Notes under the pieces: generated by a model | The model's input: the letters and a program-made list of their open reading frames with translations, nothing else | Told to the model about the DNA's origin: nothing | Databases searched by the model: none | Source: an uncultured Planctomycetia bacterium | GTDB lineage: Bacteria > Omnitrophota > Gorgyraeia > Duberdicusellales > 4484-171 | Assembly: GCA_964489445.1 (NCBI GenBank) | Contig: CAZAYU010000006.1 | Span: 53,518-117,517, forward strand | Length of the DNA stretch: 64,000 nt | Direction: 5' to 3' | Part shown: piece after piece, positions 14,233 through 57,642 of the stretch | Position numbering within the stretch: position 1 is the first letter of the stretch | Layout: the number at the start of each line of letters is the position of its first letter | Program-made: the position numbers and the translations under genes

Positions 14233-14973
14233 TTATTTTATAAACGCACTCTTAGGAAATAATGTTCGCCTTTTCAAGGCCAAGGATACCACCCGAAAAA
14301 AAGCTTCAATGATTATCCCTGAGGACATTTTGGATTTTTCCTTTTTTCTCCCGCAAAAAACAATAGGCTGCTCAATTATTATGAATCCCTTCAAAAAAGC
14401 TCTATAAACCATCTCTATTTGGAAAGCATACCCCTTAGAGAGTATCGTATTAAAATTAATGTTTTCTAGCACTTTTCTCTTTACACACTTAAAACCACTG
14501 GTTAAATCATTTAGCGGAATAGCCAGCAAAATTTTAGAAAAAATATTTGCGCTTTTGCTCAATAACACTCGACTTAATGGCCAGCCCAAAACACCCCCTC
14601 CATGAATATACCGACTACCAATAACCAAATCGTATTTTTCCATCAGAGTAACCATTTCAATAATTTTTTCCGGAGAATGAGACAAATCAGCATCAATTTG
14701 GATTATAACATCAAATCCTCTAGATAACGCATAGCCAAAACCCTCAATGTACGCAGTGCCTAATCCCTGCTGACAGTCTCTGGTAATTAAATGTAGGCTA
14801 TGATGTTTTTCCTGCAGTTTTTTAACTTTTTGATATGTTTTGTCTGGAGAATTATCATCAACAACTAAGACTGATAATTGAATATTTAAGGAGTATATTC
14901 TCTGGACAAGAAAACATATATTCTCAGCTTCATTGTACGTGGGTACAATAACTATTGTCTTTCCCGTCATCAT
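14233..14973 (-). CDS. Polyprenyl-phosphate glycosyltransferase, Dpm1/Ppm1-like GT2 (soluble form)
   Basis: IVIVPTYNEAENI, VVDDNSPDKT, IQIDADLSHSP and GSRY motifs typical of dolichyl/polyprenyl-phosphate mannose synthase. Confidence 0.75.
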   Translation of the reverse strand: MMTGKTIVIVPTYNEAENICFLVQRIYSLNIQLSVLVVDDNSPDKTYQKVKKLQEKHHSLHLITRDCQQGLGTAYIEGFGYALSRGFDVIIQIDADLSHSPEKIIEMVTLMEKYDLVIGSRYIHGGGVLGWPLSRVLLSKSANIFSKILLAIPLNDLTSGFKCVKRKVLENINFNTILSKGYAFQIEMVYRAFLKGFIIIEQPIVFCGRKKEKSKMSSGIIIEAFFRVVSLALKRRTLFPKSAFIK

Positions 14974-15031
14974 CTAACCAATCACTTTTTTTTAATAACC
15001 GACCCTTAGCGCTTATTGAGATATGGCCTAC

Positions 15032-16388: not shown

Positions 16389-17495
16389 CTATTTCTTCAA
16401 ATCTAAATGTTTTTCAATTTCTTCTAAAAAAGCGGTTAATTTGTGTAAGTTTTGGTTAACATCCTGAGAATCGCAATTGATTTGTTGTAAAGTTTGATCA
16501 ACTATCTGTGTATTGTTAATAATCTTTCCTAATAAATCAACTACTTCTAAAAACCTTTCCTTAAGTAACCCTAAATCACTAGTCGTTATCTCTTTCGCCT
16601 CTAAAAAATTATCATTCAATGATCTTAATTCACTATTAACGGTCTCATGTTTTATAGATAACTCCTGAAATAGACGAATGATCTCAAAAGAATTACCATT
16701 AATAGTTCTTACATCCTCATGGAAAAGCCCTAAAAGCTGTTTTAATTCTTCATTCTTGTTTGCAAAAACATGCAATAAATTATTTATTTCGACAAAGGCC
16801 TCTTTAAAGGACTTTAAATCAGCTTCCACAGACTCTTGGAACGCCTTATCTTGTTTAACCGTTTGGTCTAAAAAGTTGTTCGTACTCAACGATACGTCAT
16901 TTAGAGACTTTAAACCAGCTCCCACAGACTCTTGGAATATTTTGTCCTGTTCAACTGTCTGGCTTAAGGAGTTATCTACGCTTAGGGATACGTCATTTAG
17001 AGACTTTAAACCAGCTCCCACAGACTCTTGGAATATCTTATCCTGTTCAACTGTCTGGCTTAAGGAGTTATCTACGCTTAGGGATACGTCATTTAGAGAC
17101 TTTAAATTGGCTCCCACAGACTTTTGGAATATTTTGTCCTGTTCAGCTGTCTGGCTTAAGGAGTTATTTACGCTTAGGGATACGTCATTTAGAGACTTTA
17201 AACCAGCCCCCACAGACTCTTGGAATATCTTATCCTGTTTATTCATTTGATTTAAGGAGCTAACTACTATGCTTAAACTTTTCACAATTGAAACATTGTA
17301 TATTTTTATATTAAAAATAAAATCACCGATATTAGCTAAAAATCTAAACACAACAGCAACAACCGCCCCAGTTAATAAAACAACACTATACTTCTCCCAA
17401 GAGCCGGCACACCAGATTCCTCCAAGTATAGCGCCAATAAATAATGCACTCCAAGAAAAAGCTATCAACGCCCAACCTATGAATGTACGTTGCAT
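16389..17495 (-). CDS. Membrane-anchored coiled-coil repeat protein (2 N-terminal TM helices + ~5 x 32-aa tandem repeats)
   Basis: N-terminus WALIAFSWSALFIGAILGGIW… followed by repeats (E)QDKIFQESVGAGLKSLNDVSLSVDNSLSQTV, encoded by a 96-bp DNA tandem array. A further heptad-rich alpha-helical tail follows. Confidence 0.6.
   Translation of the reverse strand: MQRTFIGWALIAFSWSALFIGAILGGIWCAGSWEKYSVVLLTGAVVAVVFRFLANIGDFIFNIKIYNVSIVKSLSIVVSSLNQMNKQDKIFQESVGAGLKSLNDVSLSVNNSLSQTAEQDKIFQKSVGANLKSLNDVSLSVDNSLSQTVEQDKIFQESVGAGLKSLNDVSLSVDNSLSQTVEQDKIFQESVGAGLKSLNDVSLSTNNFLDQTVKQDKAFQESVEADLKSFKEAFVEINNLLHVFANKNEELKQLLGLFHEDVRTINGNSFEIIRLFQELSIKHETVNSELRSLNDNFLEAKEITTSDLGLLKERFLEVVDLLGKIINNTQIVDQTLQQINCDSQDVNQNLHKLTAFLEEIEKHLDLKK
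16780..17255. repeat. Tandem 96-bp repeat array (~5 copies, near-identical) inside the coiled-coil gene
   Basis: The motif gatacgtcatttagagactttaaaccagctcccacagactcttggaatat recurs at 16891, 16987, 17083 and 17179, with a degenerate copy near 16795. Confidence 0.85.
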
Positions 17496-23349: not shown

Positions 23350-23853
23350 TTAAATAAGACAATTACCAAAACCACGCGCTTCACCGTCATAGCGATTCTC
23401 TAGTACTGAAGAATAGTTTTCATTAAAACATCCAATTATCTTAGAATCAATACCGGGACCATCAAAAAATACAGTAAAAAAAGATTCTGGATTTTCCATA
23501 TAAAATATCTCCCGAACCTTATCTATATTCTCAACTGTGTAAATAGTGAATATTTTTTTGGTAAAAAAATAAACCGGAATAAGCGAAAGAGCGCTAAAAA
23601 ATACCGGTAATAACCGTAAAATAAAATCGGATTTCTTCGCAACCACCATCCAATAATGTAAAACAAAAATAAACAACGGCTGGTGGTCAAAAGACCCTAG
23701 ATTGTGGATAATGCCCTTTAAATTTTTCTGGGCAATTTCAATGAATGCCAAATCATACACCCCAAGGCTACCTCTAGTTGCGAAAAACAAACGTAACCCA
23801 AAAGCTAAAGCCATAATACTTGTAAAAATAAGCGCTACTTTGTTATTCCTCAT
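23350..23853 (-). pseudogene. Truncated N-terminal fragment of a GT-C (ArnT/PMT-like) membrane glycosyltransferase; likely gene remnant
   Basis: The first ~100 aa (…YDLAFIEIAQKNL…HQPLFIFVLHYW…) match the N-terminal loop/TM region of ArnT/PMT-family enzymes. The ORF then stops after only 167 aa, with a non-membrane tail, and abuts the next gene. Confidence 0.35.
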
Positions 23854-25537
23854 CTTTTAAATCTGGTAAACAGATAATATCTTTATAATATAAAATCTCT
23901 TGCTTCTCGGAAATATTCTCTGCTTCATGAATATTCTTCCAAGCATTTTGCGAATCACCCAAAGCATCATAAACCAAAGCCTTTCCAATATACAGCCGAT
24001 AATCTTGAGGATCTTCATCAAGATTAATTGATTTATTAAAGTACTCTAAAGACTCAGGATACATTCCTAATCGACGATATGTTTCTCCTATATAATAAAA
24101 AACCAAAGACCAATTAAAATCAACTAAATACCCTCCCAACCAATCATCATTTAATAAATTATTTTCCGTACGCTCTCTGATATTTTGGATATTCCAAAGC
24201 GCATCAGGATTCATTAAATAAACTGTTTCAAAATATTCTACCGCCCGTTCTAATATTCCACCTGGTAAACGTAAGGATTCAAAAGCCGCCCGCTTGATTG
24301 CTCCCTCTATCTCATCGCTTCGAGTCCCTCGCTTTTCTAGTGAAGGAAAATCGGAAACTACTATTGAAAAATCAGCTTGCTCATCGCTGATGTTAGCTAC
24401 TTTACTTTTTAAAAAAGTTTGAATAATAACCTTAACCGCTAAATAGTTGCACTCCCGATACCAATGGCAATTATCACTAAACTGCTCTCGGCCCAAAAGC
24501 CCCTCACTAGCCTGGCTGATGAACTCCTTCTCGATATCTGCCAGCAACACCGACTCTTCATCACAAACAGAACGAACAATCTTATTACTTTCAATACTTG
24601 CCCGGCCACTTCCGAATGACAAATCCAATGCTTTATGATAACACACCCTAGCTTTATCGTATTCTGCTAACTGTCTGTAGCAATTCGCTAATAGATATAA
24701 TCCAAAAGTATTTTCCGGATTGTTGTCCAAAAAACTATTTATAGCCCCAATCGCACCTTTATAACCTTTCTGATCAAATAAATAATGGGCTAAAAGATAC
24801 TCCTTATCTACTGGTCTTATTCCAAACGGCGCACAATCTGCAAAATTAACCGGCAAGGTACACAAAATCACCGGTATCTTTTTGTTCTTCGCTGCTTGCG
24901 TAATTAAGTGTAAATTTTTTTCATAGTCTACTAACCTTTGTTTTCTGCTGCGATATTGAGAACCGGATTCTCCAGTAAATTTAAGAAATTGTTCTTGCAA
25001 CTTCTGATAGACCCAAGATTTTTTAAATATTTTATCAAGCCGATACTTTAAAACATCAACTTTAACTACATTGTAGAATTCATTATTGCCAGAAAATACA
25101 ATAATTAAATCCGGATTGTAAGCTAATATTTCTTTTTCTACTAAATAAGCTCTATAACTATCATATGCTCCCATTGCACAAGGAACAACCTTGATATCTC
25201 CATCGGGAAGTATTCTCTTAAGCTCATTTTTAAAAAAAGGATTTCCTCCGAAATTGTGTCCGACTGAACCACCAATAATAAAAATTCGTAACTCATTCAG
25301 CGGCTTATCCATCAGAAATTCTTCAGAATTATTAAACGCCCTCTGTGGTACATAAAAAATTCCTTCTTTTCTACGCTCTTTTTTAAAAAAATCCTTATAA
25401 ATATCTATGTATTGGTATTGGAATTGGGGTAGATCCTTGTTAGATGGTGCAACACCATAACGAATAATCATTACACATTCAAAAAATACCAAAACCAGAA
25501 TTACGATAGCCATAAAAATAACTATAAATTTTTTCAT
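23843..25537 (-). CDS. Membrane-anchored SGNH-like hydrolase domain fused to C-terminal TPR repeats (putative)
   Basis: N-terminal TM helix. Blocks resemble SGNH hydrolases (FIIGGSVG, GAYDS, VFSGNNEF, DNCHW). C-terminal TPR-like helices (YLLANCYRQLAEYDKA…, IGETYRRLGMYPESLEYF…). Confidence 0.4.
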   Translation of the reverse strand: MKKFIVIFMAIVILVLVFFECVMIIRYGVAPSNKDLPQFQYQYIDIYKDFFKKERRKEGIFYVPQRAFNNSEEFLMDKPLNELRIFIIGGSVGHNFGGNPFFKNELKRILPDGDIKVVPCAMGAYDSYRAYLVEKEILAYNPDLIIVFSGNNEFYNVVKVDVLKYRLDKIFKKSWVYQKLQEQFLKFTGESGSQYRSRKQRLVDYEKNLHLITQAAKNKKIPVILCTLPVNFADCAPFGIRPVDKEYLLAHYLFDQKGYKGAIGAINSFLDNNPENTFGLYLLANCYRQLAEYDKARVCYHKALDLSFGSGRASIESNKIVRSVCDEESVLLADIEKEFISQASEGLLGREQFSDNCHWYRECNYLAVKVIIQTFLKSKVANISDEQADFSIVVSDFPSLEKRGTRSDEIEGAIKRAAFESLRLPGGILERAVEYFETVYLMNPDALWNIQNIRERTENNLLNDDWLGGYLVDFNWSLVFYYIGETYRRLGMYPESLEYFNKSINLDEDPQDYRLYIGKALVYDALGDSQNAWKNIHEAENISEKQEILYYKDIICLPDLKDEE

Positions 25538-26937
25538 TTTTGAAATGTCTTATGCGCGGGCACATCTCCAAGCGCAGAGATCAATTCGATAAACTTTTCG
25601 TAACGCTTTTTTCTAATTTCTGTTGTATGATTACCGTTCTGAGAGTGCCAATTCCTTTGATCGTCGGCAACAATTCCAAATCTTTGCTTATGTCTGAATA
25701 ATAAACTAGAAGATTTAAGGATAAAGGAATTAACCATTATATTATTCTTGAGATACATCATATTTTCAGACACAAACTCAAGCGTCTGGTTAAAATCTTT
25801 TTCCGTCTCTGTAGGAAAACCGACAATCCAATTAGTACAAACAGCAATTCCCGCTCGATATGTATCCTTTATTATTTTTTTTGCTTCTTCAATCATAAAG
25901 TTTTTATTCATTTGGCGTAAAACACGAGGTGAAGCACTTTCAATGCCATAATTCAAATAACAACAACCAGATTGTTTCATCTTCCTAAACAACTTATAAT
26001 CCATTTGCTTATCTACCGTAGCGCTAGCTCCCCACGAAATATTAATATTTTCTTTTATCAACAGATCACACAAACCTGACAATTGACTAAGATTTCCATT
26101 AATTAACAAATCATTAAACTCTAAAAATTCAATACCATTGTCTTTACGTAATCTTATTTCCGCTAAAATATTTTTTGCACTCCTATATCTATAACGCCTC
26201 CACATAAGAGTATCATCACAAAATACACACCTATTTACGCACCCTCTGCTTCCTAGAATAGGTAGTCTGTCTTTAAATTTATACTTTTCAGGGAAATCGT
26301 TAAATTCCGGGAAAGGTATTGAGTCGATATCTTCTATTAGTCTCCTTTCTCCATTATTAAACATCCGATTGTTTTCTCTAATAATAGTTCCTGGGCAACC
26401 TATAAGCGAATTCTTGCTTTCAATGCGTTGCACCACATCAATAATAGTTGATTCTCCTTCCCCAAGCACAACAACATCGATAGTTTTAACGCCCAAAAGG
26501 TTCTCTATTCCCAGCAAATAATATGAATGATCCAAGCTATAGCTTAAGTGCAAGGGCCCGCCAAAAACAATCTTTTGCTCCGGACATATACTCTTTATTT
26601 CACCAGCTAAACTAATACTTGCTGTCAAAGAAGAGCTTTGCACTGAAAAACCAATTAAATCTGGATTACTACTTAATATTCTTTGCGCCCATTTTTTAAA
26701 ATAACAACTAGGAAGTATTTTTTGCTTAATAATATGATTGTTTTCCATCCATTCAAAAACATACTGAAACTCCCAAAATTTTTTGTCCTCTTCTTTTGTT
26801 CTCGAATACAACTCTACGTTCAAATCAAAAACTGTAGCTTGGTGTTTATATCTTCTTAAAAACGCAACCAGATAAGCCAAACCTAAAGGAGGCCGATCAA
26901 TTCCAAAAGCCGGACATTGTACAAGAGTAATTTTCAT
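25534..26937 (-). CDS. Cobalamin-binding (class B) radical SAM protein
   Basis: N-terminal B12-binding-like domain (…FGGPLHLS…) then GSRGCVNRCVFCDD. The track start at 26988 is TTG; ATG (MKITLVQCP, as in paralogues) is at 26937. Confidence 0.7.
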   Translation of the reverse strand: MKITLVQCPAFGIDRPPLGLAYLVAFLRRYKHQATVFDLNVELYSRTKEEDKKFWEFQYVFEWMENNHIIKQKILPSCYFKKWAQRILSSNPDLIGFSVQSSSLTASISLAGEIKSICPEQKIVFGGPLHLSYSLDHSYYLLGIENLLGVKTIDVVVLGEGESTIIDVVQRIESKNSLIGCPGTIIRENNRMFNNGERRLIEDIDSIPFPEFNDFPEKYKFKDRLPILGSRGCVNRCVFCDDTLMWRRYRYRSAKNILAEIRLRKDNGIEFLEFNDLLINGNLSQLSGLCDLLIKENINISWGASATVDKQMDYKLFRKMKQSGCCYLNYGIESASPRVLRQMNKNFMIEEAKKIIKDTYRAGIAVCTNWIVGFPTETEKDFNQTLEFVSENMMYLKNNIMVNSFILKSSSLLFRHKQRFGIVADDQRNWHSQNGNHTTEIRKKRYEKFIELISALGDVPAHKTFQK

Positions 26938-27019
26938 TTTAATACTAACAGCTAATAAGATAGCTTTTATGAGACTATTTACTGTCAAAAATGTTTTCTA
27001 TAAACATTTTAGTAATACC

Positions 27020-27793
27020 CTACCTAGACTCAACAATTTCTTGAGATAAGTTCCGTAGCAGCACTTTAACGTGCTCAAGGCGAATGTTAATGTCCTCATT
27101 TAGCTGTTTTAACCCATTATTATTAAGAACTATTTCGCTGTTAACATTATCTAGTGTAAAAGATACACTCCTTCTCTGGGCTGCTGAATCTTCGCTTGCT
27201 GAAGACAATAAGCTACTTAATGATTGAACCGAATTATCAAGTCTATCTATCTCTTGTTTTACATTTAAAGAAGAAAGAGATTCGGGTAATAGCTGTAAGG
27301 TTTCATTAATTTTTTCAAATGCTGAAGACAGTAAGCTACTTAATGATTGAACCGAATTATCAATTTTTTCAAATTTATCTTTTAAAGTACAATCAATACG
27401 CTCTTCAAAAACATCTATCTTGGCTAGCACCTGTCTCATCTCCAAAGATAAACCACTGCTTAAAGAGTTTATCGAGTTATTCATTCCGCTTAGCTCTTTT
27501 GAAATAGCCAATATTTGAGAATAAAGGAATGAAGAAATATTAAAAAATATTTGGGATATATTTCCAAGCACCCTAACAATTGTTCCCAAAAGAATGCTTA
27601 CTAGAACAACCATCAACCCACTAAAAAATAATTTTGGATTAGTAAATCTAGCAAGCATCAAGTAACTGCCTCCTAAAAAGCCAAAGACCACAATCAGCCA
27701 AGAAAGAACCATCAAAATAACAGTGGTGGGAATATTTTTTGTCTTCACAACCATAGCATAACCTCCTTCTTTATTACATTTTTTTGTTGCCAA
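27020..27793 (-). CDS. Membrane-anchored coiled-coil protein (2 N-terminal TM helices + Ser/Leu-rich repeats)
   Basis: TM helices TTVILMVLSWLIVVFGFLGG and LMVVLVSILLGTIV. Repeated DNSVQSLSSLLSSA(F/S)E units sit 41 aa apart, matching DNA repeats at 27198 and 27321. Confidence 0.55.
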   Translation of the reverse strand: MATKKCNKEGGYAMVVKTKNIPTTVILMVLSWLIVVFGFLGGSYLMLARFTNPKLFFSGLMVVLVSILLGTIVRVLGNISQIFFNISSFLYSQILAISKELSGMNNSINSLSSGLSLEMRQVLAKIDVFEERIDCTLKDKFEKIDNSVQSLSSLLSSAFEKINETLQLLPESLSSLNVKQEIDRLDNSVQSLSSLLSSASEDSAAQRRSVSFTLDNVNSEIVLNNNGLKQLNEDINIRLEHVKVLLRNLSQEIVESR

Positions 27794-29956
27794 TCAATAA
27801 AAGACTTTTATCTTACCCGAATAATATCGGTATCTTCCTTTAGAAAAAATATTATCATCATCACTAAAACTTTTCCTGTAAATTATTCCTCTTGCCTGGA
27901 GCTGTTTATTAGTATTGTGAATCGCTAGCAAATCACTTGCTACCAATAATTTATCTGGCTCAAAAACGACTGAAGGAAAACCTTTAATGACTCTCATTAA
28001 TCTATTACGCTGGGTCTTCAACTTTCCTTGAGAAAACCTAACTAGCTCTACCCAAGAATCATTAAATTTATTAGACAACTTGGACGTTAAGCCATCAATA
28101 TCCAACAATTGATATTTATCAGACAGCATAAGATTTGTATCATAACGATCAATTTGTATTCTCTGCTCCAAAAACATACTTATTTCAATTATTAAACAAT
28201 GAGGATCGTTTAACTTGACTTTCCAAACCTGACACATCGGAAACCTAGTATATTCCCCTTTGGCAATTATAGTATCATTGACACACCTCACTTTCCATGA
28301 TGCCTGCAGAGAATCAATCCAATGGCCCAAAGAAAAAACAGAGGTATATAAGCCAAAATGTTTGGTTAATTCAACGCCATTATAAAAAATTCTCCCCTTC
28401 CCTTGGTCAAATAAAAACTCTAAAGCTCTTTTTTTTATAGATATCTTCTGCTTTTTATACCCTTCATTTGCTAATATTTTTTGTGTTATTTTTTTATTAA
28501 TATCAGACATTCCTTTGCTGTCTAAATACCCTCCCACTCGATTAGTGTAAAATTTTCTGCCACACTTTTCCCAAAAAATATCCATTCTTCTTAATCGTTC
28601 ACCGTAATTATTTGAAAGATCTTGAGTTTGCCAATCATAAATATTGTTGCTCTGTATATTATACAAGTTAAGATTATTATGAATATACGAATGCGGCTTT
28701 ATTGTAAATACTGATGAATCTAACCCGGAAATATATCTTCTGTTATTTTCAATAAAGTGCAATGTTTTTTCAAAGTCCTTAATCGTCTCGGTTGGAAAAC
28801 CAACAATCCAGTTAGTAAAGACAGCAATGCCGGAAGAATACGCATCTACAATATTTTGACGCGCAGCATCAACTGTAAATGGCTTTTTCATGCTGCGCAG
28901 AACATCATTTGATGCGCTTTCAATTCCAAAATTAAGATACTCACAGCCTGATTGTCGCATTTGCTCAAAAAGCTTTCGATTCATGTCCAGTCTTACAGAA
29001 ATACTCGCCCCCCATCTTGTAATTATATTATTTTTAATGATCAGTTTACACATTCTAAGTAAGGAATCTAAATCTGCATTGATTAACTCATCGTTAAAAT
29101 GAAAAAACTCAACCTGGTAATTATTTCGCTGCACATTCATCTCCTCAACGACAGATTCTGGACTTCTCTTACGAAAGACATAGTTAAAAAAATAAGGATC
29201 ATTACAAAATGCACAATGGTTAATGCACCCTCTACTTGTTAAAATCGGCAAAAATTTCAAATCAGTATAAGCGTTTAAGGAATAACCAGAAAAGTCCGGA
29301 TAAGGCAATTTATCTATATTCTTGCTCAAAGGGCGCACTTTATTGATTAGCAATGAATAGCCCTCTTTAGCGATTATCCCCTCGCATCCTTTTAAACTTT
29401 TTCCACTATTTACCCTTTCGACAATTTCCGGAAAGACATCCTCCCCTTCTCCCACAACGACAATGTCAATAATTCTCATAATATTCTTAATTCTCACGCC
29501 AGGGTTTATTGCACCATCAAAGATATTTACATTTTCAATAATAAATGGTCCGCCAAAAATTATTTTGGCGTTTTTACTAAACTCTTTAATTTTTTTTGCT
29601 AAAAGAACACTTACATTGACCGATGTGTTATACACTGTAAACCCTATTAAATCAGGAGTAGTATTCAAAATACTTTTAGCCCAGAGATCTAGTACCTTTC
29701 CACCCAAAAAATTAATATTTCTGATAGTACGTTCATCTTCCCATTCATGCTCAAGAGTATTCTGTGTCCAGAATGATTCAGACTTATAATCCCAATTTCT
29801 TTTTTCAATATCATTCACCTTATTGTAAAGGCTGATATTAAAATCAAACTGAAGCACATTATTTCCACGCTTTTCTAAGACTGATTTTAAGTAAGCCGGA
29901 CCTATTTGCGGCATCCGAGGATTAAACATTGGACATTGTATAAGGGCGATATTCAT
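27794..29956 (-). CDS. Cobalamin-binding (class B) radical SAM protein with C-terminal ~200-aa domain homologous to the Wzt C-terminal repeats
   Basis: MNIALIQCP B12-domain start, …FGGPFII…, and ILTSRGCINHCAFCND. The C-terminal GKGRIFYNGVELTKHFGLYTSVFSLGHWIDS…IDRYDTNLMLSDKYQ aligns to each repeat in ORF 54112..56841. The track start is GTG at 29974; ATG with a GGAG RBS is at 29956. Confidence 0.75.
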   Translation of the reverse strand: MNIALIQCPMFNPRMPQIGPAYLKSVLEKRGNNVLQFDFNISLYNKVNDIEKRNWDYKSESFWTQNTLEHEWEDERTIRNINFLGGKVLDLWAKSILNTTPDLIGFTVYNTSVNVSVLLAKKIKEFSKNAKIIFGGPFIIENVNIFDGAINPGVRIKNIMRIIDIVVVGEGEDVFPEIVERVNSGKSLKGCEGIIAKEGYSLLINKVRPLSKNIDKLPYPDFSGYSLNAYTDLKFLPILTSRGCINHCAFCNDPYFFNYVFRKRSPESVVEEMNVQRNNYQVEFFHFNDELINADLDSLLRMCKLIIKNNIITRWGASISVRLDMNRKLFEQMRQSGCEYLNFGIESASNDVLRSMKKPFTVDAARQNIVDAYSSGIAVFTNWIVGFPTETIKDFEKTLHFIENNRRYISGLDSSVFTIKPHSYIHNNLNLYNIQSNNIYDWQTQDLSNNYGERLRRMDIFWEKCGRKFYTNRVGGYLDSKGMSDINKKITQKILANEGYKKQKISIKKRALEFLFDQGKGRIFYNGVELTKHFGLYTSVFSLGHWIDSLQASWKVRCVNDTIIAKGEYTRFPMCQVWKVKLNDPHCLIIEISMFLEQRIQIDRYDTNLMLSDKYQLLDIDGLTSKLSNKFNDSWVELVRFSQGKLKTQRNRLMRVIKGFPSVVFEPDKLLVASDLLAIHNTNKQLQARGIIYRKSFSDDDNIFSKGRYRYYSGKIKVFY

Positions 29957-31647
29957 TGATGTCTCCGCTTCCACTCTTCGGCAAAATTAATATTTTCCGG
30001 CCGAACGAGCCTTGAGAATTCATAATATATAACAAACCCTTGGGCAGTTATTCTCTTTTTATGCCTGATATCATGCTCACTTAAATACTCATCCATTATA
30101 TCAATATGCCCAAACTTATGATTACCAGTAAATACATAAGCATACCTATTAGCTCTATCTACAGCCTGTTCATAATAATCATATCTCTCGCCAAAGTGGC
30201 AATCATCATATATTACATCCCCAGTACTTGAACAACTCCAAATGCCCCTGCACGATGCAATGATTTTCTCCTTGCTTTCAAAAACTAGCGGCCACTTAGC
30301 ATCATAATACGTATAGACGTAATGAATATCTTTTTCCAGTAACTCACTAATAAGCTGCCTTAGCCCCGACATCGACCAACGATCACCATTAATGTAGAAA
30401 TTTATATTTCCAAATAAACTAATTAAAATAATGCTTACAGCTAAAACAACTGAAATGATCTTACCTAGAAAATTAAACTCAAAGAGCTTTATTATAAACA
30501 AGGAAATAAAAATATAAAAAAAAGGATACAAAACCATTGCATAATGATCCCTCCACACATAATCACTACTATACTGGCTGAAAGAATAAAGAAGCGAATA
30601 GAACAGAGGAAAAACAAGTAACAACGATTCCGGATTAATTTTTTCGGGAATAACATTGTGCTTGGTTGAAGGTATGACTCCTTTTATGACATTCTTTAAA
30701 GATTCTCTATTCAACCAAATAAGAAAACAAACGGAAATAACCACCACGAAATAATATAAATAATTAATAAATGATGCGTTAAAGAAAGGAATTAATTCAA
30801 AGTTAAACGAATCAGGAATGCGATAAAAAAATAAATCCTTAATACGGATAAATCTCTCAGCAATATAAGAAGAAGTAAATAAGAACTTATCAACTTCCAG
30901 CCCCATCAACGGACTACTGTATCCACTGAAAATAGCATACAATAAAGGACTAATTCCAACAGTAAAAGATACAACAAAAATAAGAAACTGAACCCGCAAA
31001 AAAAATAACTTGTCAAAAAGATACCAATAAAACATGATAACCAAAACAAAAATAAATGCAGAAACATGATACGCAATAGCTAAGCCGGATAACACGCCTA
31101 AAATTATCCAATAGCCATACCTATCTAATGGTAGCGCCTTGCGCTTTGAATTAAAAAAAATGCTAAAAAAAACAAAAAATATTAAAATATCAAAAAACAA
31201 TATATCATGATGATTAGCCACACAGTATAAGCTATAGCGAAAATACGAAGGAATAGAAAAAATATACAGTAGACTAGTTAGTAGTGCAACCTTTCGACTA
31301 AAAAATTTATTTGTAAATGTAAATAAAATAACCAGTATTCCTATACTAAATATTAACGGAACCAGTCTCAAGGAAATTGTGGAAACACCAAACAATAAAA
31401 ATAGGGGAACCGCCATAAACGAGGACACCACGGAGCCCAACCCATAAAGATGAATATATGAAAGGTGTGCCTGCGTATTATTTCCTTCTAATATATGTTT
31501 TGCTAAAATCCCTCTTACTCCTTCCTCAGACATAACTACATTACAAGCAGAATATAAAACCAATAAACGTAATCCTACCAATGTTATTATCAACAAACTA
31601 ATAACAAAAAACTTATTCTTCAATATACCTAATTTCATTTTTACCAA
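29953..31647 (-). CDS. Polytopic membrane protein, probable GT-C fold glycosyltransferase (ArnT/PMT_2-like) with C-terminal soluble domain
   Basis: About 11 predicted TM segments. N-terminal loop motif SEEGVRGILAKHIL resembles the DE(x)R…IA…M loop of ArnT/PMT enzymes. The ATGA overlap with the upstream gene implies translational coupling. Confidence 0.45.
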   Translation of the reverse strand: MVKMKLGILKNKFFVISLLIITLVGLRLLVLYSACNVVMSEEGVRGILAKHILEGNNTQAHLSYIHLYGLGSVVSSFMAVPLFLLFGVSTISLRLVPLIFSIGILVILFTFTNKFFSRKVALLTSLLYIFSIPSYFRYSLYCVANHHDILFFDILIFFVFFSIFFNSKRKALPLDRYGYWIILGVLSGLAIAYHVSAFIFVLVIMFYWYLFDKLFFLRVQFLIFVVSFTVGISPLLYAIFSGYSSPLMGLEVDKFLFTSSYIAERFIRIKDLFFYRIPDSFNFELIPFFNASFINYLYYFVVVISVCFLIWLNRESLKNVIKGVIPSTKHNVIPEKINPESLLLVFPLFYSLLYSFSQYSSDYVWRDHYAMVLYPFFYIFISLFIIKLFEFNFLGKIISVVLAVSIILISLFGNINFYINGDRWSMSGLRQLISELLEKDIHYVYTYYDAKWPLVFESKEKIIASCRGIWSCSSTGDVIYDDCHFGERYDYYEQAVDRANRYAYVFTGNHKFGHIDIMDEYLSEHDIRHKKRITAQGFVIYYEFSRLVRPENINFAEEWKRRHQ

Positions 31648-38613: not shown

Positions 38614-39636
38614 TTACCTTTTAGGAAAATTAGTGTTTAATTTTTTATAGATATCCTCAATGGCTTGATTATTAAAATTAATTTTCAAGCACTCTAAAGC
38701 TTCTTCACGCGTTAACATCCCCTCTCTTATCAATTTGCTCATTTCTACATGATAATGCGTATATCCATAATGTTTTAAAGACTGCTCTACTGATACAAAG
38801 TTTAACCGACAATTAGTTGAATTTTTTGGATAGCTACAAGAAGAAAGCTTCCATTTTAATTCCTTTTTTATTACGTCAGTATACACATCAGAACTAAATG
38901 GTAAAAACCAATGCGGCGATAAAATTATATACTTTTGCTTTTTCCGTGCTTTAGCCAAAACCTCTTCCATACTTCGCGGAAAATCTTTATACTTATCATT
39001 TTTAAAAACATAACTATTGATAAATTCTTTTGTAGCCTTAGCCATTGAATAAAACTCGGGTTGTTTTTGAATATAGTTAGAATGACCAGCACCCGACGAT
39101 TGTCCTTTTGTCCACCCGGCAATAACTAATGGTGTTTTGTACCGTAATGCAATATCCAAGGTAACCTGCATATACCAAATAGAGCAAACATGGCAAATAA
39201 CCGCTTTAGAATTAGTCTTAATAACCTCCGAAAACATATCCTTCATATAAACGCTTTTAAAGAACAACGAATCTACTCCTAATATTTCCACTGCATTCTC
39301 AATATTATTCAACGCGTCTTGATTTTCAAACCCATGATCAAAAGTAAATACTAACGGATTTAAACTATACCGCTTTTTTAAGTAATATAAAGCAGATATA
39401 CTATCTTTTCCACCGCTACACATCAAAAGACAATCATATTTTTGTTTACCTCTATATCGATTAACCGTCCTAATGAAATCTGTTTCTAGCAATTTTGTTT
39501 GTTTATTAGATTTGCTGTTTACTGCATACTCAACGCATATGTTACATACACCTTTGTCATTAAGCCATATGTCCGGTTTCCTTTCTGGCAGCACACACCT
39601 TATGCATTTCTTTTTTGAATAACTATTATCCATCAT
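38614..39636 (-). CDS. N-acetyl-sugar amidotransferase-like PP-loop ATP pyrophosphatase (LPS biosynthesis WbpG/PseA-like)
   Basis: N-terminal Cys4 zinc-ribbon (CIRC…CNIC) followed by PP-loop CSGGKDS. Confidence 0.6.
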   Translation of the reverse strand: MMDNSYSKKKCIRCVLPERKPDIWLNDKGVCNICVEYAVNSKSNKQTKLLETDFIRTVNRYRGKQKYDCLLMCSGGKDSISALYYLKKRYSLNPLVFTFDHGFENQDALNNIENAVEILGVDSLFFKSVYMKDMFSEVIKTNSKAVICHVCSIWYMQVTLDIALRYKTPLVIAGWTKGQSSGAGHSNYIQKQPEFYSMAKATKEFINSYVFKNDKYKDFPRSMEEVLAKARKKQKYIILSPHWFLPFSSDVYTDVIKKELKWKLSSCSYPKNSTNCRLNFVSVEQSLKHYGYTHYHVEMSKLIREGMLTREEALECLKINFNNQAIEDIYKKLNTNFPKR

Positions 39637-40167: not shown

Positions 40168-41403
40168 TCAATTTTCAAAAAAATTATTCCTGACTACCAC
40201 ATCGTAAATATTTTGAGCCATGACTCCATACCCTTGAGCATTAGGATGTCCCCTGTCTTCTGATAAATATTCTTCTTTGTCTTTCCAAATTTCATTGAAT
40301 CTTTTTTCATTGTCAATGTAGGTAGCTCCATTATTTTCTGCAACTTCTTGCAAAATATAATTCATATCCTTGAAGGACCAAATATCCTCACATTTTGGAT
40401 AATTTTGGATTATTACGGGAATCTCTTTGTCTTTGCAAATATTGATCATCCTTGTAATATCCGAATTAACCCACCCTTGTAGCGTCTTCAAGTACAATAT
40501 TAAATCCTTTTCTCTTTTAATAAAATCTCTGACTATTTCACTTTCTTCTTCAAATTGCGATAAAAACTTAATATTCTCATTCCTTATTTCTGGTTTTTGA
40601 GAAAGAAAATTTGAAATAAAAAATCCTAACGGCTGATATTCATTAGGATTAATTTCTATTGCTTTCTTTGCGTATTCATACGCAATTTCATCATCATGAA
40701 GCATAAGAGCATATATTCTTGCAATTTGCCAATAAGATTCACAATACTCAGGCTCTAATTCCATTGCTATTTTATACCACCTTATCCCTTCCTCCCATTC
40801 TCCTTCATTTTCACAATTCCGTGCTTTATTCCAAGCATTATTAAACTCTTCTGATAAATGAATTTGTCTGTCTTTTTTTTGATCACTCTTAATCTGCTTT
40901 TGTATGTTTTTGGATAATAATTTTACCAATTTGTACACCTTAATCGACTGGATAGAATTATAAATTCTGGCACTTAATGTTTTCTCTTTTGTATATTTAA
41001 TATATCCTTGTGCATACCAAATATTTGCACCTCCAGCTAGAATAACTACTAAGTCCGGATTAAATTCTGCTATCCATCCATCAAATTTCGATAAAATTGA
41101 AAATGTATTGTACCCGCCTACCCCTCGGTTGATAACCTGACAATTTATCTTATTATTATCTGCATTTAACAATTTCTCTAATTGCCGGGGGTAACTTTTA
41201 TCAGAAGGAGCACCGCTACCATGAGTAAATGAATCCCCTACACATAGAATGATATAGCTATTAGCTTCTTTTTGATTGACTTTATCTCTAGCGGCATTTT
41301 TTAGACAAACATACCCTGTCAATCTCAAACCACCTTCAAGTGCTACCAAACAAACAACAATTCCTAGTAAAAAAACAATAAATTTACGTCTTAATAAAAA
41401 CAT
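40168..41403 (-). CDS. SGNH/GDSL hydrolase domain + TPR repeats, secreted/membrane-anchored (tandem duplicate copy A)
   Basis: N-terminal TM helix. Motifs CVGDSFTHGSGA (block I), GGAN (III) and DRGHPNAQGYG (V), with TPR-like C-terminal region. Confidence 0.7.
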   Translation of the reverse strand: MFLLRRKFIVFLLGIVVCLVALEGGLRLTGYVCLKNAARDKVNQKEANSYIILCVGDSFTHGSGAPSDKSYPRQLEKLLNADNNKINCQVINRGVGGYNTFSILSKFDGWIAEFNPDLVVILAGGANIWYAQGYIKYTKEKTLSARIYNSIQSIKVYKLVKLLSKNIQKQIKSDQKKDRQIHLSEEFNNAWNKARNCENEGEWEEGIRWYKIAMELEPEYCESYWQIARIYALMLHDDEIAYEYAKKAIEINPNEYQPLGFFISNFLSQKPEIRNENIKFLSQFEEESEIVRDFIKREKDLILYLKTLQGWVNSDITRMINICKDKEIPVIIQNYPKCEDIWSFKDMNYILQEVAENNGATYIDNEKRFNEIWKDKEEYLSEDRGHPNAQGYGVMAQNIYDVVVRNNFFEN

Positions 41404-42702
41404 TTATGCTGATAGTTCTAGGAATAAAATATATTCTATTAAAGGCCTGGACAAACTTTATTTTTCTAAATCGGAATTTAGCTTTTTTATATGTTTACAA
41501 ATATTTTGAGCCATGGCTCCATACCCTTGAGCATTAGGATGCCCCCTGTCTATCGATAAATATTCTTCTTTGTCTTTCCAAATTTCATTGAATCTTTTTT
41601 CATTGTCAATGTAGGTAGCTCCATTATTTTCTGCAACTTCTTGCAAAATATAATTCATATCCTTGAAGGACCAAATATCCTCACATTTTGGATAATTTTG
41701 GATTATTACGGGAATCTCTTTGTCTTTGCAAATATTGATCATCCTTGTAATATCCGAATTAACCCACCCTTGTAGCGTCTTCAAGTACAATATTAAATCC
41801 TTTTCTCTTTTAATAAAATCTCTGACTATTTCACTTTCTTCTTCAAATTGCGATAAAAACTTAATATTCTCATTCCTTATTTCTGGTTTTTGAGAAAGAA
41901 AATTTGAAATAAAAAATCCTAACGGCTGATATTCATTAGGATTAATTTCTATTGCTTTCTTTGCGTATTCATACGCAATTTCATCATCATGAAGCATAAG
42001 AGCATATATTCTTGCAATTTGCCAATAAGATTCACAATACTCAGGCTCTAATTCCATTGCTATTTTATACCACCTTATCCCTTCCTCCCATTCTCCTTCA
42101 TTTTCACAATTCCGTGCTTTATTCCAAGCATTATTAAACTCTTCTGATAAATGAATTTGTCTGTCTTTTTTTTGATCACTCTTAATCTGCTTTTGTATGT
42201 TTTTGGATAATAATTTTACCAATTTGTACACCTTAATCGACTGGATAGAATTATAAATTCTGGCACTTAATGTTTTCTCTTTTGTATATTTAATATATCC
42301 TTGTGCATACCAAATATTTGCACCTCCAGCTAGAATAACTACTAAGTCCGGATTAAATTCTGCTATCCATCCATCAAATTTCGATAAAATTGAAAATGTA
42401 TTGTACCCGCCTACCCCTCGGTTGATAACCTGACAATTTATCTTATTATTATCTGCATTTAACAATTTCTCTAATTGCCGGGGGTAACTTTTATCAGAAG
42501 GAGCACCGCTACCATGAGTAAATGAATCCCCTACACATAGAATGATATAGCTATTAGCTTCTTTTTGATTGACTTTATCTCTAGCGGCATTTTTTAGACA
42601 AACATACCCTGTCAATCTCAAACCACCTTCAAGTGCTACCAAACAAACAACAATTCCTAGTAAAAAAACAATAAATTTACGTCTTAATAAAAACATTTAT
42701 TT
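40206..42702. repeat. Direct tandem duplication: two ~1.2-kb units (40206..41408 and 41499..42702) with near-perfect identity, separated by a ~90-bp unique spacer
   Basis: Side-by-side reading shows only a few mismatches (e.g. catgactcc vs catggctcc). Identity ends at aaacatttat on one side and aaatattttgagcc on the other. Confidence 0.85.
41458..42696 (-). CDS. SGNH/GDSL hydrolase domain + TPR repeats (tandem duplicate copy B)
   Basis: The protein is identical to copy A except for the last ~30 residues. Confidence 0.7.
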   Translation of the reverse strand: MFLLRRKFIVFLLGIVVCLVALEGGLRLTGYVCLKNAARDKVNQKEANSYIILCVGDSFTHGSGAPSDKSYPRQLEKLLNADNNKINCQVINRGVGGYNTFSILSKFDGWIAEFNPDLVVILAGGANIWYAQGYIKYTKEKTLSARIYNSIQSIKVYKLVKLLSKNIQKQIKSDQKKDRQIHLSEEFNNAWNKARNCENEGEWEEGIRWYKIAMELEPEYCESYWQIARIYALMLHDDEIAYEYAKKAIEINPNEYQPLGFFISNFLSQKPEIRNENIKFLSQFEEESEIVRDFIKREKDLILYLKTLQGWVNSDITRMINICKDKEIPVIIQNYPKCEDIWSFKDMNYILQEVAENNGATYIDNEKRFNEIWKDKEEYLSIDRGHPNAQGYGAMAQNICKHIKKLNSDLEK

Positions 42703-54111: not shown

Positions 54112-56841
54112 TTACTCTCCGTTAACCATTATTTCACCTTTTGAATATATATACTCTCCAGGCATTAAACTAATCGGAACATCATCTAAATATTGTAAAA
54201 CTCTACCACGAAAATTAAGATCTGTGTTTACTATGTTAAGCTTGTCCTGCTGACTTCTAAAAAAGGGGGTAAATATTATTTCGGGAAAATAACTTTCCTT
54301 TTTTCTAATCCTCTTTACCCCAGCATAGAACTTATTATCCTCCGACAAACAACATGAAGAAATAACTCCCCAATCATCGTCAACATTTCCATCAAAAAGA
54401 GGAAATGTCCCTTCATTTTTATTGAATGCCCATTGTTTATATTCTTCAGAAAGCATAATATTTGTCTGCTGGCGATCAATTCCAATTTCTTTATTAACTC
54501 TCATTTTAATTGAAAACGCAATAACACCCTCCCGTACTAATCTTAAATTCCAATATTGTTCTATTGGCAAATGCATCCATCTGCCAATAGAATTAATTTC
54601 GGAATCATTACCCTGAACACTCCATACAGCATGCGTACAAGAATCGTACCATCTGCCTTGCGACCGCAAAGAGGTATAAAAACCAAGCTGCTTTGTTAAT
54701 TTTTTATCATTCCAAAATATTTCTCCTCTCCCATTTGTTAAATTATACTTTAATTTTTTTTTCGCCACCATCCAAGAATCATTGGTAGTATTTTGTTGTT
54801 TAGCGTCATATTTTAAGGAAATTCTTACCTCAAAACACCTATGCCTACCTTGCGCAAACTTTCTTTTATCCTCCGGTTCAACACTTTGGATAGACAATAC
54901 TCTTGTCCGGCAAGACATAGCTGAATTAAAAATTTTAGCAAAATTATGCGGTTTTTTAGAGAAATCTAATAAAATATCCGGCAAATGTTTATCTAAACTA
55001 GACAAAATAATACTTTCATCGGGAATACATCTTTGCAACATATCCTCTTCGCGCTCTGAAAAAATATCCGAAAATGCACCCTTACCATACTTACTAAAAT
55101 AATATTTGTATCTTTCTGATAACTCAATCCTGATAAACTTTTCCTCAATCTCTAATTCATCTTTTATCTCGATATCTAAAGTAAAAATAAAATAATCTTC
55201 ACTAATAATTTCTATTTCCCAGATACAAATAACAGGTAAATACGCACTCTCACACCTGGCAATTATTTTTTTATTGCCTTCTTTTTTTATCTCCCAGAAA
55301 CTAGATTCAAAATTATACACCCGGCCTGCACAACGTAAAAAAAAGCTTACACAATTACCTTTGACTAAAGATAAATCATTAAAGAACGGAATGACTTTCC
55401 CATTATTAAATGTTAACCTTAACCTCTCTTGTGATATTGTTGTTTCGTCTTGAATATTCTTAAGATAAGCAGGCACATCTTTGATTCCAATAATGATTTT
55501 TCCGCTAAAAAATGTTAACCGTTTCCCTTTATTTTTAGAATAATTTTGTACATTCGCTATTTGAAATTGCAAAATTCGCGAGGAAATGAAACAATCTGAA
55601 TTTAATATTTGCCCATAGACAGGTAAAGCAGATAATGATTGTTCAACAATAAAAGAAGGCATACTCTCAGCAAGGCTATTCTCGGTTATTACTCCGATAC
55701 ATCTTCTAGAAATATTATCTTCCAATAAAGGCATCCATTGGTTATTACCTTCAATTATGGAGGGAAAATTATCTTTTTCGCCTAGAGAAGTAAACCATTG
55801 CTGATATTTATCAACTAAAATAAAATCAACACATCCCTGTTCAATTTCCATCATTTGTTCACTCTCAATCCCAATATCTATCTTTATCTCGCCGGAATCC
55901 ATCAATTCTATTTTCCAAACAACAATAAGCTCTATTTGATATATCCGCCCCTTAGCTGTAATCCGCTTATCACTTTCTTCTTCAATCTCCCAGTAGGCTT
56001 GAAAAGAATTGTACCGTTTATCTCGCGTAAAGAAATTAATATGTATTCCGGAAGAATTAGTAATAGGCTGATCGGCCCAATTAATAAATAAGCGGCCATT
56101 ATTAAATACAATACTTAAATTATCTTTTTTTAGGATCCCGACACCCTCCTTTGCCCCGACTACTTGTGTATAAAGAGCGATGGTCTTTTTCACCTCAGAA
56201 TCCTTAATGAGCCTACCCTCTTTAAGCAAAATAGCTCTCTTGCAAAGCCTCTGCAGCATCCCCATTTCATGGGTAACGTAAACAATTGTTGCACCTTTTT
56301 CTCTGATTTCAAATATTTTCTTTATGCATTTTTTTTGAAAAGACTCATCTCCCACCGCTAAAGTATCATCGATTAATAATATTTCCGGATCCAGACAAAT
56401 AGCAATCGAAAACGCCAAACGGACAAACATTCCTTGAGAGTAATACTTAACCGGAGCATTAATAAATTTCCCAATTGCGGCAAAATTTTCAATATCTTCG
56501 TATTTCTGATCAATTTCCTGTCGTGTAAATCCAAAAAAAGTGCTGTTTAAGAAAATATTATCTTTTCCGCTTAATTCCTGCTGAAAACCAGCTCCCAAAT
56601 CTAAAAGCCCGGTTACTCTCCCAGAAACACTCACCTCGCCTCGATCAGGGACGAGTATTCCGGCAATTAACTTTAAAATAGTAGATTTTCCTGCCCCGTT
56701 TTCTCCGATTATTCCCAGACTTTGCCCCTTCTCAACATCAAATGTTATATCCTTTAATGCCCAAAAATTATCCCAAGAAAGTTTACCATCAATAATAAAC
56801 TTTATTCGAAATATTTCCCAAACATCTTTAAACGTGATCAT
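54112..56841 (-). CDS. wzt: ABC transporter ATP-binding protein, Wzt/TagH-like, with ~650-aa C-terminal extension built from three tandem ~200-aa domains
   Basis: Walker A GENGAGKST, signature YSQGMF, Walker B ILLIDD, H-loop THE. Three repeats follow (…FNNGRLFINW…, …FNNGKVIPFF…, …GRGEIFWNDKKL…). Confidence 0.75.
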   Translation of the reverse strand: MITFKDVWEIFRIKFIIDGKLSWDNFWALKDITFDVEKGQSLGIIGENGAGKSTILKLIAGILVPDRGEVSVSGRVTGLLDLGAGFQQELSGKDNIFLNSTFFGFTRQEIDQKYEDIENFAAIGKFINAPVKYYSQGMFVRLAFSIAICLDPEILLIDDTLAVGDESFQKKCIKKIFEIREKGATIVYVTHEMGMLQRLCKRAILLKEGRLIKDSEVKKTIALYTQVVGAKEGVGILKKDNLSIVFNNGRLFINWADQPITNSSGIHINFFTRDKRYNSFQAYWEIEEESDKRITAKGRIYQIELIVVWKIELMDSGEIKIDIGIESEQMMEIEQGCVDFILVDKYQQWFTSLGEKDNFPSIIEGNNQWMPLLEDNISRRCIGVITENSLAESMPSFIVEQSLSALPVYGQILNSDCFISSRILQFQIANVQNYSKNKGKRLTFFSGKIIIGIKDVPAYLKNIQDETTISQERLRLTFNNGKVIPFFNDLSLVKGNCVSFFLRCAGRVYNFESSFWEIKKEGNKKIIARCESAYLPVICIWEIEIISEDYFIFTLDIEIKDELEIEEKFIRIELSERYKYYFSKYGKGAFSDIFSEREEDMLQRCIPDESIILSSLDKHLPDILLDFSKKPHNFAKIFNSAMSCRTRVLSIQSVEPEDKRKFAQGRHRCFEVRISLKYDAKQQNTTNDSWMVAKKKLKYNLTNGRGEIFWNDKKLTKQLGFYTSLRSQGRWYDSCTHAVWSVQGNDSEINSIGRWMHLPIEQYWNLRLVREGVIAFSIKMRVNKEIGIDRQQTNIMLSEEYKQWAFNKNEGTFPLFDGNVDDDWGVISSCCLSEDNKFYAGVKRIRKKESYFPEIIFTPFFRSQQDKLNIVNTDLNFRGRVLQYLDDVPISLMPGEYIYSKGEIMVNGE

Positions 56842-56847
56842 ACTATT

Positions 56848-57642
56848 TTACAATTTTTTAAATAATTCCTTCTCAAAATACGAAAAAACTTTAAATCCAA
56901 GAATTAAACTGACAATAGCCCACAAGAATGTACCTGCAAATATAGAAATGCTAGGCAAATTTCCATTAAAAATAACATCACGATAATATTGAATATAGCA
57001 ACTCATAGGATTTATACTTATTACCCACCTAAGCTGTTCGGGAAGCATCTCCGAAGAATAGAATATCGGAGTTATCCAGAACCAAAGCATAAGCATAACC
57101 CCTAGAAAATGTGTTATGTCACGATAAACTACATTAAGAACAGAAAGCATAAGCGAAATACCGCAAATAAACAAAAAATGCAAAAATAAAACGATAAACA
57201 AAAAAGGGACCAAACTAATTATTTTAAAATTAAAAAATAAAAATACAAAATATAGTGTGCAAAACCCAGCAATAAATTCCAAAAAATTTGCCAGAACAAC
57301 AGATATCGGAAATATTTCTTTAGGTATATTGAACTGTTGCAAAAGCCCTCGCTGATTTATAATCGACCCTGCAGCATCAAACAGAGAACTAGAAAAAAAC
57401 ATCCAAGGGATAATACCAGCAAGAACGAAAAGAGGAAAATTTTTGATTTCCGCCTTAAAAATAAAAGTGAACACAAAAGTTATTACAAGCATTAATAATA
57501 AAGGATTAACTACTGCCCAAAATACCCCTAAAAAGGCATTCGAATATTTTGCCTTCACCCTAGAAAAGGCAATTTTCCATAAATTGCCACGATAAGAATA
57601 TATTTTAGTTATTCTTTCCCTTAACATAATACTAAAACGCAT
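56848..57642 (-). CDS. wzm: ABC-2 type transporter permease (Wzm-like)
   Basis: 264 aa, six hydrophobic segments. It sits immediately upstream of the Wzt-like ATPase, separated by 6 nt. Confidence 0.7.
   Translation of the reverse strand: MRFSIMLRERITKIYSYRGNLWKIAFSRVKAKYSNAFLGVFWAVVNPLLLMLVITFVFTFIFKAEIKNFPLFVLAGIIPWMFFSSSLFDAAGSIINQRGLLQQFNIPKEIFPISVVLANFLEFIAGFCTLYFVFLFFNFKIISLVPFLFIVLFLHFLFICGISLMLSVLNVVYRDITHFLGVMLMLWFWITPIFYSSEMLPEQLRWVISINPMSCYIQYYRDVIFNGNLPSISIFAGTFLWAIVSLILGFKVFSYFEKELFKKL

Follow-up and report, generated by a model that had tools for sequence, protein, structure and literature searches.

A predicted β-supersandwich module shared by a B12-type radical SAM enzyme and a Wzt-like exporter ATPase in Omnitrophota, with a possible role in glycan recognition

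The locus and its two module carriers

The stretch of DNA analysed here, hereafter the window, comprises 64,000 nucleotides of contig CAZAYU010000006.1 (GenBank assembly GCA_964489445.1, positions 53,518 to 117,517 of the forward strand), from an uncultured Planctomycetia bacterium assigned to the Omnitrophota in GTDB. Two of its genes, 24 kb apart, encode proteins that share a C-terminal module of about 220 residues: a class-B (B12-type) radical S-adenosylmethionine (SAM) enzyme with a single copy, and the ATPase of a Wzt-like ATP-binding cassette (ABC) exporter, in which three copies follow one another in tandem. Profile searches place the shared segment in what appears to be a previously unannotated domain family, carried both by exporter ATPases and by enzymes, for which a role in glycan recognition is proposed below. 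The two carriers are laid out as follows, with residues numbered along each open reading frame (ORF).

27794..29956, minus strand: class-B (B12-type) radical SAM gene with C-terminal module (Pfam, NCBIfam, ORF list)
29423..29677, minus strand: B12-binding-like region, ORF residues 100-184 (Pfam PF02310 and NCBIfam coverage)
28751..29242, minus strand: radical SAM core, ORF residues 245-408 (Pfam PF04055, 74.8 bits, E 1.2e-20)
27797..28444, minus strand: C-terminal module with predicted β-supersandwich fold, 'terminal' subtype, ORF residues 511-726
54112..56841, minus strand: Wzt-like ABC exporter ATPase, 909 residues, with C-terminal three-module array (Pfam ABC_tran)
56158..56841, minus strand: nucleotide-binding domain of the ATPase, residues 1-228
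55444..56157, minus strand: module repeat 1, 'first' subtype, residues 229-466
54772..55443, minus strand: module repeat 2, 'middle' subtype, residues 467-690
54115..54771, minus strand: module repeat 3, 'terminal' subtype, residues 691-909, nearest within the window to the radical SAM copy

A BLASTP comparison of residues 481-726 of the radical SAM protein with all ORFs of the window returned the Wzt-like protein as the sole match, three times over, at Wzt residues 692-906 (30% identity, E 3e-21, 84 bits), 215-374 (28% identity, E 3e-11) and 464-678 (18% identity, E 2.5e-6). With composition correction and SEG filtering off, the real score of 85.5 bits compares with 18.0±2.1 (maximum 25) for 500 shuffles of the radical SAM domain, ruling out a purely compositional similarity, and in a four-copy alignment identity between the radical SAM copy and Wzt repeat 3 is 30.1%, against only ~21% among the Wzt repeats themselves. 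Homology of radical SAM residues 511-726 to all three Wzt repeats is confirmed. The original prediction, made from the letters of the window and cited here for its central observation, had matched the C-terminus of the enzyme to the third Wzt repeat by means of peptides that do lie where it placed them, and its alignment holds; the proviso that the likeness might be compositional only does not apply, a shared fold being predicted instead. A six-frame scan of the 64-kb window with a hidden Markov model (HMM) of the family found no carrier beyond these two proteins.

The radical SAM ORF (27794-29974, minus strand) would yield a 726-residue protein if started at GTG 29974; the true start is most likely ATG 29956, giving a 720-residue product, because the 720-residue form occurs on 13 metagenome contigs, and the GTG start is made less likely by the lack of any gene on record for a 726-residue product. 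PF02310 aligns to residues 100-184 with 30.2 bits, just under the Pfam cut-off of 32.1, and the PF04055 core contains the CxxxCxxC cluster motif as CINHCAFC (residues 250-257, 29204-29227). Residues ~75-450 align to many cobalamin-dependent radical SAM families of NCBIfam, the best of which are C-/P-methyltransferase subfamilies (E 5e-41 to 3e-37), all matches falling far below the family cut-offs (e.g. 140.8 vs 281.85 bits); residues ~505-726 are covered by no Pfam or NCBIfam family.

The ABC_tran match of the Wzt-like protein spans residues 29-161, and its best NCBIfam matches, below cut-off, are TagH and Wzt/RfbE (E 1e-52 to 1e-54); the exact 909-residue product is found on 9 contigs, and the window has matches among ENA metagenome assemblies (ERZ273…). 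The ABC_tran gene adjoins an ABC2_membrane gene, with GT2 and GT4 glycosyltransferase genes flanking the pair, the arrangement of a Wzm/Wzt-type exporter. The module array follows the ATPase domain immediately, from residue ~229, as it does in 91 homologues. The Walker B motif of the ATPase (residues 154-165) is ILLIDD, an Asp standing where the catalytic Glu is expected, which is unusual for a homodimeric ABC ATPase; DD occurs in about 60 of the 79 array-bearing Wzt homologues in which the motif was located, and DE in the rest (about 14).

Predicted fold of the module

A structural model built from four sequences was confident in its first half only. From 30 terminal-type copies, AlphaFold2 produced a model with a predicted local distance difference test score (pLDDT) of 88.9 and a predicted template-modelling score (pTM) of 0.87, and Foldseek searches with this model agree with a galactose-mutarotase-like β-supersandwich (best template-modelling score 0.66), about 58 of the 60 nearest structures being proteins that act on carbohydrates. 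The module is accordingly modelled as a compact β-supersandwich of the galactose-mutarotase type.

The classical Wzt C-terminal domain has a different fold, a small jelly-roll β-sandwich. No match to the corresponding family, PF14524 (Wzt_C), was obtained in the window Wzt (E ≤ 0.01), in the Wzt of an independent locus described below (L034) or in 30 module copies (E ≤ 1); Pfam scans of the two Wzt proteins returned ABC/AAA families only, and the visible structure-match lists contain no Wzt carbohydrate-binding-domain structure. Membership of the classical family is rejected on these grounds, and with no PF14524 match and a different predicted fold, the likeness of the module to Wzt-C is positional, not homologous. 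The original prediction had identified the module with the carbohydrate-binding domain of characterised Wzt proteins, an identification that has to be given up; its broader suggestion of a carbohydrate-related module fares better, the predicted fold being typical of carbohydrate-binding and -processing domains. Aldose 1-epimerase (PF01263) was likewise without a match, and the invariant columns in the alignment of 30 copies include no His or Glu.

An unannotated domain family with positional subtypes

When 1.84 billion cluster representatives were searched exhaustively with a profile, 572 proteins were recovered at E ≤ 1e-3, of which 215 reached E ≤ 1e-30. A word-indexed protein search gave 0 matches with the radical SAM module alone and only 2 proteins with a 30-sequence alignment. 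Thirty module copies scanned singly against Pfam at E ≤ 1 pointed to no consistent family, and a sequence-profile search of the Protein Data Bank (PDB) with the module gave no match. Carriers with a source name are all from Candidatus Omnitrophota, and existing annotations of carriers include "radical SAM protein" and "glycosyltransferase family 39 protein". A pattern scan of GTDB species representatives yielded 19 loci, by title 13 from Omnitrophota/Omnitrophica metagenome-assembled genomes, 5 from Planctomycetia or Planctomycetales and 1 from a "bacterium", a distribution that says little on taxonomic breadth, the pattern having been derived from a 6-sequence alignment biased to close relatives of the window Wzt. 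The family, of about 220 residues per copy, merits a Pfam/InterPro entry, which would fill regions of up to 1,700 residues per protein that are now blank in annotation.

Copies differ by their position in the arrays. In an all-against-all BLAST of 357 copies, best non-self matches pair first copies with first (66), middle with middle (49) and last with last (48), with 30 off the diagonal, and a rough neighbour-joining tree, drawn without support values, separates the same three positional clades. The radical SAM copy of the window falls in the terminal clade, alongside the terminal copies of Wzt proteins and of enzymes. Its best matches are the last copies of two fusions with GT-C membrane glycosyltransferases, P0034 (34%, 121 bits) and P0012, and the last copies of a radical SAM protein (P0137) and of two Wzt proteins (P0017, P0002), all of which outscore repeat 3 of the Wzt in its own window (84 bits). 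The radical SAM copy being closer to enzyme-borne copies elsewhere, a recent intragenomic duplication of the neighbouring Wzt repeat 3 is rejected as the origin of the fusion.

Terminal copies are marked by the motifs ELTK-LGLYTS, W-DS, LP--Q-W, QTN-MLS--Y--W, G-FP, I-NSD-----RVLQ and PG-Y-YF-G-I. Across 30 of them, T27, W42, S45, P69, N177 and R185 are invariant, and the invariant or near-invariant positions include T, W, S, N, R, W, W, Y, W and F. W50, W74, Y111 and W114 likewise count among the conserved positions; all these numbers refer to the module, and ORF residues of the radical SAM protein are higher by 510.

Carrier architectures

The commonest architecture, in 91 of the 150 best representatives, joins a Wzt-type ATPase domain at the start of the protein to an array of 1-8 copies, most often three. 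Long arrays of 5-8 tandem copies are seen in P0076 (2244 residues) and P0005 (1370 residues), adding up to ~1,700 residues per ATPase subunit. Among the enzymes, GT-C/PMT_2 membrane glycosyltransferases bear 1-3 C-terminal copies (P0012, P0034, P0074, P0144), a sulfatase-family protein bears two (P0107), a 1403-residue protein alternates B12-type radical SAM domain, copy, SPASM-type radical SAM domain and copy, and in further carriers 2-3 N-terminal copies precede a radical SAM/SPASM region; the module thus occurs on at least four unrelated enzyme classes. Short stand-alone proteins consisting of a single copy are also found (P0123, P0132, P0138). By these architectures, the terminal subtype appears to have been fused repeatedly and independently to B12-type and SPASM-type radical SAM, GT-C and sulfatase-family enzymes.

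One carrier joins the two sides in a single chain: P0037, a single 1856-residue ORF directly downstream of a Wzm gene (L027 3516-9086, JGI 3300013103), consists of a Wzt ATPase domain, five copies and a radical SAM/SPASM region. Exporter and radical enzyme are here one polypeptide.

Fusion to B12-type radical SAM enzymes can be followed most closely for the window protein. None of the 120 closest homologues of its catalytic part (<=50% identity, 471-485 residues) carries the module, those with a source name being from Omnitrophota, and a module-free paralogue, 37% identical to the catalytic part, lies two genes downstream of the carrier in the window (25534-26988). The combination of B12-type radical SAM and module nevertheless recurs in unrelated lineages, in a 727-residue protein of L034 with a catalytic part only 27% identical, and again in the N-terminal half of 1398-1403-residue proteins of L028 and L033; as judged from these sequences, the fusion is portable.

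The sulfatase-family carrier starts with MLKRYTIIVAIIISISLICSFFLL, a predicted signal anchor, and has no other hydrophobic segment; by signal-anchor logic its catalytic domain and both copies probably lie outside the cytoplasm, where the Wzt array cannot be their partner and a glycan can. Its gene (L030 10001-12376) is accompanied by CysD/CysN-like, sulfatase- and phosphodiesterase-family, glycosyltransferase and radical SAM-SPASM genes, a neighbourhood that may point to sulfated or phospho-substituted glycans in part of the Omnitrophota.

Genomic context

Every gene of the window is on the minus strand, and its G+C content is about 33%. Its further features named in the text are as follows.

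25534..26988, minus strand: paralogous B12-type radical SAM gene without module
29953..31647, minus strand: PMT_2-like GT-C membrane glycosyltransferase (weak Pfam PMT_2 match, 23.8 bits)
56848..57642, minus strand: Wzm-like ABC-2 permease, partner of the Wzt-like ATPase (Pfam ABC2_membrane)
4711-7491, 44900-46984, 47001-49001 and 49096-52071, minus strand: examples of the 17 radical SAM genes

Besides Wzm/Wzt, the predicted products include GT2 and GT4 glycosyltransferases, a DegT aminotransferase, an epimerase/dehydratase, a carbamoyltransferase, YdjC, an AsnB-like amidotransferase, GDSL esterases and two PMT_2-like proteins, and by this content the window is, at the level of prediction, an ABC-transporter-dependent glycan locus of unusual chemistry. 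Between positions 977 and 53242 lie 17 radical SAM genes with about 21 radical SAM domains, an extraordinary density; four of the proteins are double-domain (B12-type radical SAM plus radical SAM/SPASM, or radical SAM plus radical SAM), and glycosyltransferase genes are interleaved among them.

With up to 10 kb of flank fetched on each side, 18 of 19 Wzt loci of related genomes have radical SAM genes in the flank, and the six full loci of ~20 kb (10 kb on both sides) hold 4-8 each. In L034 (95-kb contig, JGI 3300037810), positions 6369-15359 encode consecutively a Wzm, a Wzt with three copies, a radical SAM/SPASM protein with two N-terminal copies and a B12-type radical SAM protein with one C-terminal copy, after which come seven further radical SAM-SPASM genes; this gene order offers the best independent support for a functional link between the carriers. 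In each of L028 and L033, two adjacent radical SAM genes carry five copies in total across the pair.

The PMT_2-like gene and the radical SAM carrier overlap at 29953-29956, stop codon on ATG, which suggests translational coupling of the two. The PMT_2-like protein of the window is itself without the module, and no relatedness to the membrane parts of the PMT-module fusions was detectable by BLAST. Elsewhere in the window, tandem GDSL-esterase/tetratricopeptide repeat genes (40168-41403 and 41458-42696) are 99% identical over 399 residues, reflecting either a tandem duplication of very recent date or an assembly region that was collapsed or duplicated. Domain scans of the ORFs at 27020-27793, 38614-39636, 16389-17495 and 23350-23853 gave no convincing family, that at 38614-39636 showing weak ThiI/QueC-like PP-loop matches only.

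Proposed role of the module

On balance, the module is probably a non-catalytic glycan-recognition domain, akin to a carbohydrate-binding module (CBM), by which the exporter and the tailoring enzymes reach a common lipid-linked polymer. Its ligand would be some conserved part of that polymer, so that all of these proteins would gather on one substrate; in the window, the module would keep the B12-type radical SAM enzyme on the nascent glycan while a sugar residue undergoes radical chemistry, most likely C-methylation by analogy with the nearest families, and the Wzt array would take hold of that polymer to export it. Four considerations favour recognition of a glycan: the carbohydrate-associated predicted fold; conserved positions rich in Trp, Tyr, Asn and Arg; varied carrier enzymes that are all expected to act on glycans; and a predicted extracytoplasmic carrier that cannot touch the cytoplasmic Wzt array. 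The pattern suggests that Omnitrophota hold their surface polymer by one module for both modification and export.

Several points weigh against this proposal. Any binding pocket is putative, the conserved positions being defined by alignment columns, and supersandwiches outside carbohydrate biology exist (YidC P1 domain, PBCV-1 P19, NDH PnsB2). Genomes whose glycans presumably differ share a strongly conserved terminal subtype, which speaks for a ligand that is itself conserved, and such a ligand could just as well be a protein partner. A home-made hydropathy and positive-inside count gave inconsistent topologies for the GT-C fusions, which were dropped as evidence. Co-occurrence of carriers is documented in the window, in L034 and in the P0037 fusion; no second carrier was seen within the flanks of up to 10 kb of the 19 other Wzt loci, a negative that is uninformative because the two carriers of the window are themselves 24 kb apart. 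The Omnitrophota, moreover, are uncultured.

The strongest competitor dispenses with the glycan altogether: homotypic contacts between terminal-subtype copies would build a membrane-associated tailoring and export complex, the module serving for docking or oligomerisation. High conservation of the terminal subtype across genomes and carriers is what a protein interface would show, the order of subtypes within arrays is conserved, the fused Wzt-array-radical SAM polypeptide points to selected proximity of enzyme and exporter, and the fold also serves non-carbohydrate roles, as in the YidC P1 domain and a viral capsid protein. Such a complex is nonetheless hard to extend to the sulfatase-family carrier, which is predicted to be extracytoplasmic and away from the cytoplasmic array, or to stand-alone single-module proteins, the conserved Trp, Tyr, Asn, Arg, Ser and Thr are typical of sugar-binding sites, and nearly all of the nearest structures act on carbohydrates; docking is on these grounds unlikely, if still to be taken seriously. 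Less probable again is the pairing put forward in the original prediction, in which the B12-type radical SAM enzyme adds a radical-derived modification to the chain terminus and the Wzt array reads this cap as the export signal. In characterised Wzt proteins the C-terminal domain does read a terminal cap (PMC11231755), the module starts right after the ATPase domain as the classical cap-reading domain does, and the radical SAM copy is closest to one particular Wzt repeat, of the terminal subtype. The module is unrelated to that classical domain, however, in both family and predicted fold; a lone terminating enzyme is difficult to square with carriers from four or more enzyme classes, with as many as three of them at one locus (L034) and with five copies spread over two adjacent enzymes; an array of 3-8 copies on each Wzt monomer suggests multivalent contacts along the chain; and the radical SAM copy stands nearer to enzyme copies elsewhere (34% identity) than to its own repeat 3 (30%), giving no sign of within-genome co-specialisation. 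The specific writer and reader pair has found no direct support, diverse carriers, several of them in one locus, ordered arrays of differentiated copies and a strongly conserved terminal subtype being better accommodated by a general polymer-targeting module.

That the supersandwich is itself an enzyme, a mutarotase- or epimerase-like catalyst acting on sugar residues, is very improbable. Stand-alone proteins of this fold are aldose 1-epimerases, and some acidic positions are commonly conserved (WxDS and NSD motifs), but 30 members gave no aldose-epimerase or other Pfam match at E ≤ 1, there is no invariant His or Glu, the module has ~220 residues against ~290-340 for mutarotases, and 3-8 diverged copies on an ATPase are not expected of an enzyme.

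A glycan-recognition module in loci so rich in radical enzymes invites a further, decidedly tentative idea, that of a glycan 'assembly line' in which the module holds the lipid-linked polymer on the exporter ATPase while many radical SAM enzymes, some with a copy of their own or joined to the exporter, rewrite it. Were this so, the surface glycan would bear an unprecedented density of radical-derived modifications (C-methylations, cross-links), and the module would do for polysaccharides what leader-peptide recognition elements do for ribosomally synthesised and post-translationally modified peptides (RiPPs).

Binding of glycan by the module would in itself mean that O-antigen-type ABC exporters have a second way of selecting their substrate, structurally unrelated to the first, and that a recognition domain of this kind is, for the first time, found systematically on tailoring enzymes too, linking modification to export. 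It would offer an entry point to polysaccharide-directed radical SAM chemistry, which is almost unexplored, by flagging which radical SAM enzymes act on a polymer, and it draws attention to the very radical SAM-rich surface-glycan loci of Omnitrophota, a widespread phylum whose ultra-small members depend on hosts and probably make contact with them through the cell surface.

Comparison with known systems

Searches of the literature combining Wzt with mutarotase, Omnitrophota with radical SAM, and B12-type radical SAM with O-antigen found no description of the module, and nothing in Pfam, NCBIfam or the searchable literature contradicts the earlier suggestion that the sharing of a domain between such an enzyme and an exporter is undescribed. 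What sets the module apart from known exporter-linked recognition appears, from its sequences and architectures, to be a different fold, its arrangement in arrays, and its sharing with enzymes that include radical SAM proteins.

Class B radical SAM methyltransferases acting on sugars or unactivated carbons include GenK, Fom3, PhpK and HpnP/HpnR. Like them, the window enzyme has a CxxxCxxC core, preceded by a candidate B12-type domain that scores just under the Pfam cut-off; none of those families has its C-terminal module. In structure, the nearest relatives are the supersandwiches of carbohydrate-active enzymes, which comprise aldose 1-epimerases, N- or C-terminal domains of GH97, GH38, GH63 and GH174 enzymes, domain 5 of β-galactosidase, heparinase and alginate lyases; compared with these carbohydrate-enzyme domains, the module shows 5-13% identity and no profile match, is smaller, lacks a conserved catalytic His or Glu, and resides on ABC ATPases, radical SAM enzymes and GT-C proteins rather than on hydrolases or lyases.

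In function, the nearest system is the carbohydrate-binding domain of Wzt in cap-dependent O-antigen export. The classical Wzt-C domains of E. coli O9a, K. pneumoniae O12/O4 and Aquifex aeolicus likewise directly follow the ATPase domain of a Wzm/Wzt exporter, belong to ABC-transporter-dependent glycan loci and are, as is presumed for the module, selectors of polymer for export; the module differs in its 1-8 differentiated tandem copies and in its presence on tailoring enzymes as well. A 2024 paper reports terminator enzymes to be without identified CBMs, one Ig-like candidate excepted (PMC11231755).

As a concept, the module finds its closest analogue outside glycan biology. The RiPP recognition element (RRE), a PqqD-like winged-helix domain, binds the leader peptide, and both it and the module are small, portable and substrate-recruiting (the module putatively so), fused to unrelated tailoring enzymes of one pathway, radical SAM/SPASM proteins among them, or standing alone; here, by contrast, a predicted β-supersandwich forms the scaffold, a glycan is presumed to be the ligand, and the exporter too is a carrier.

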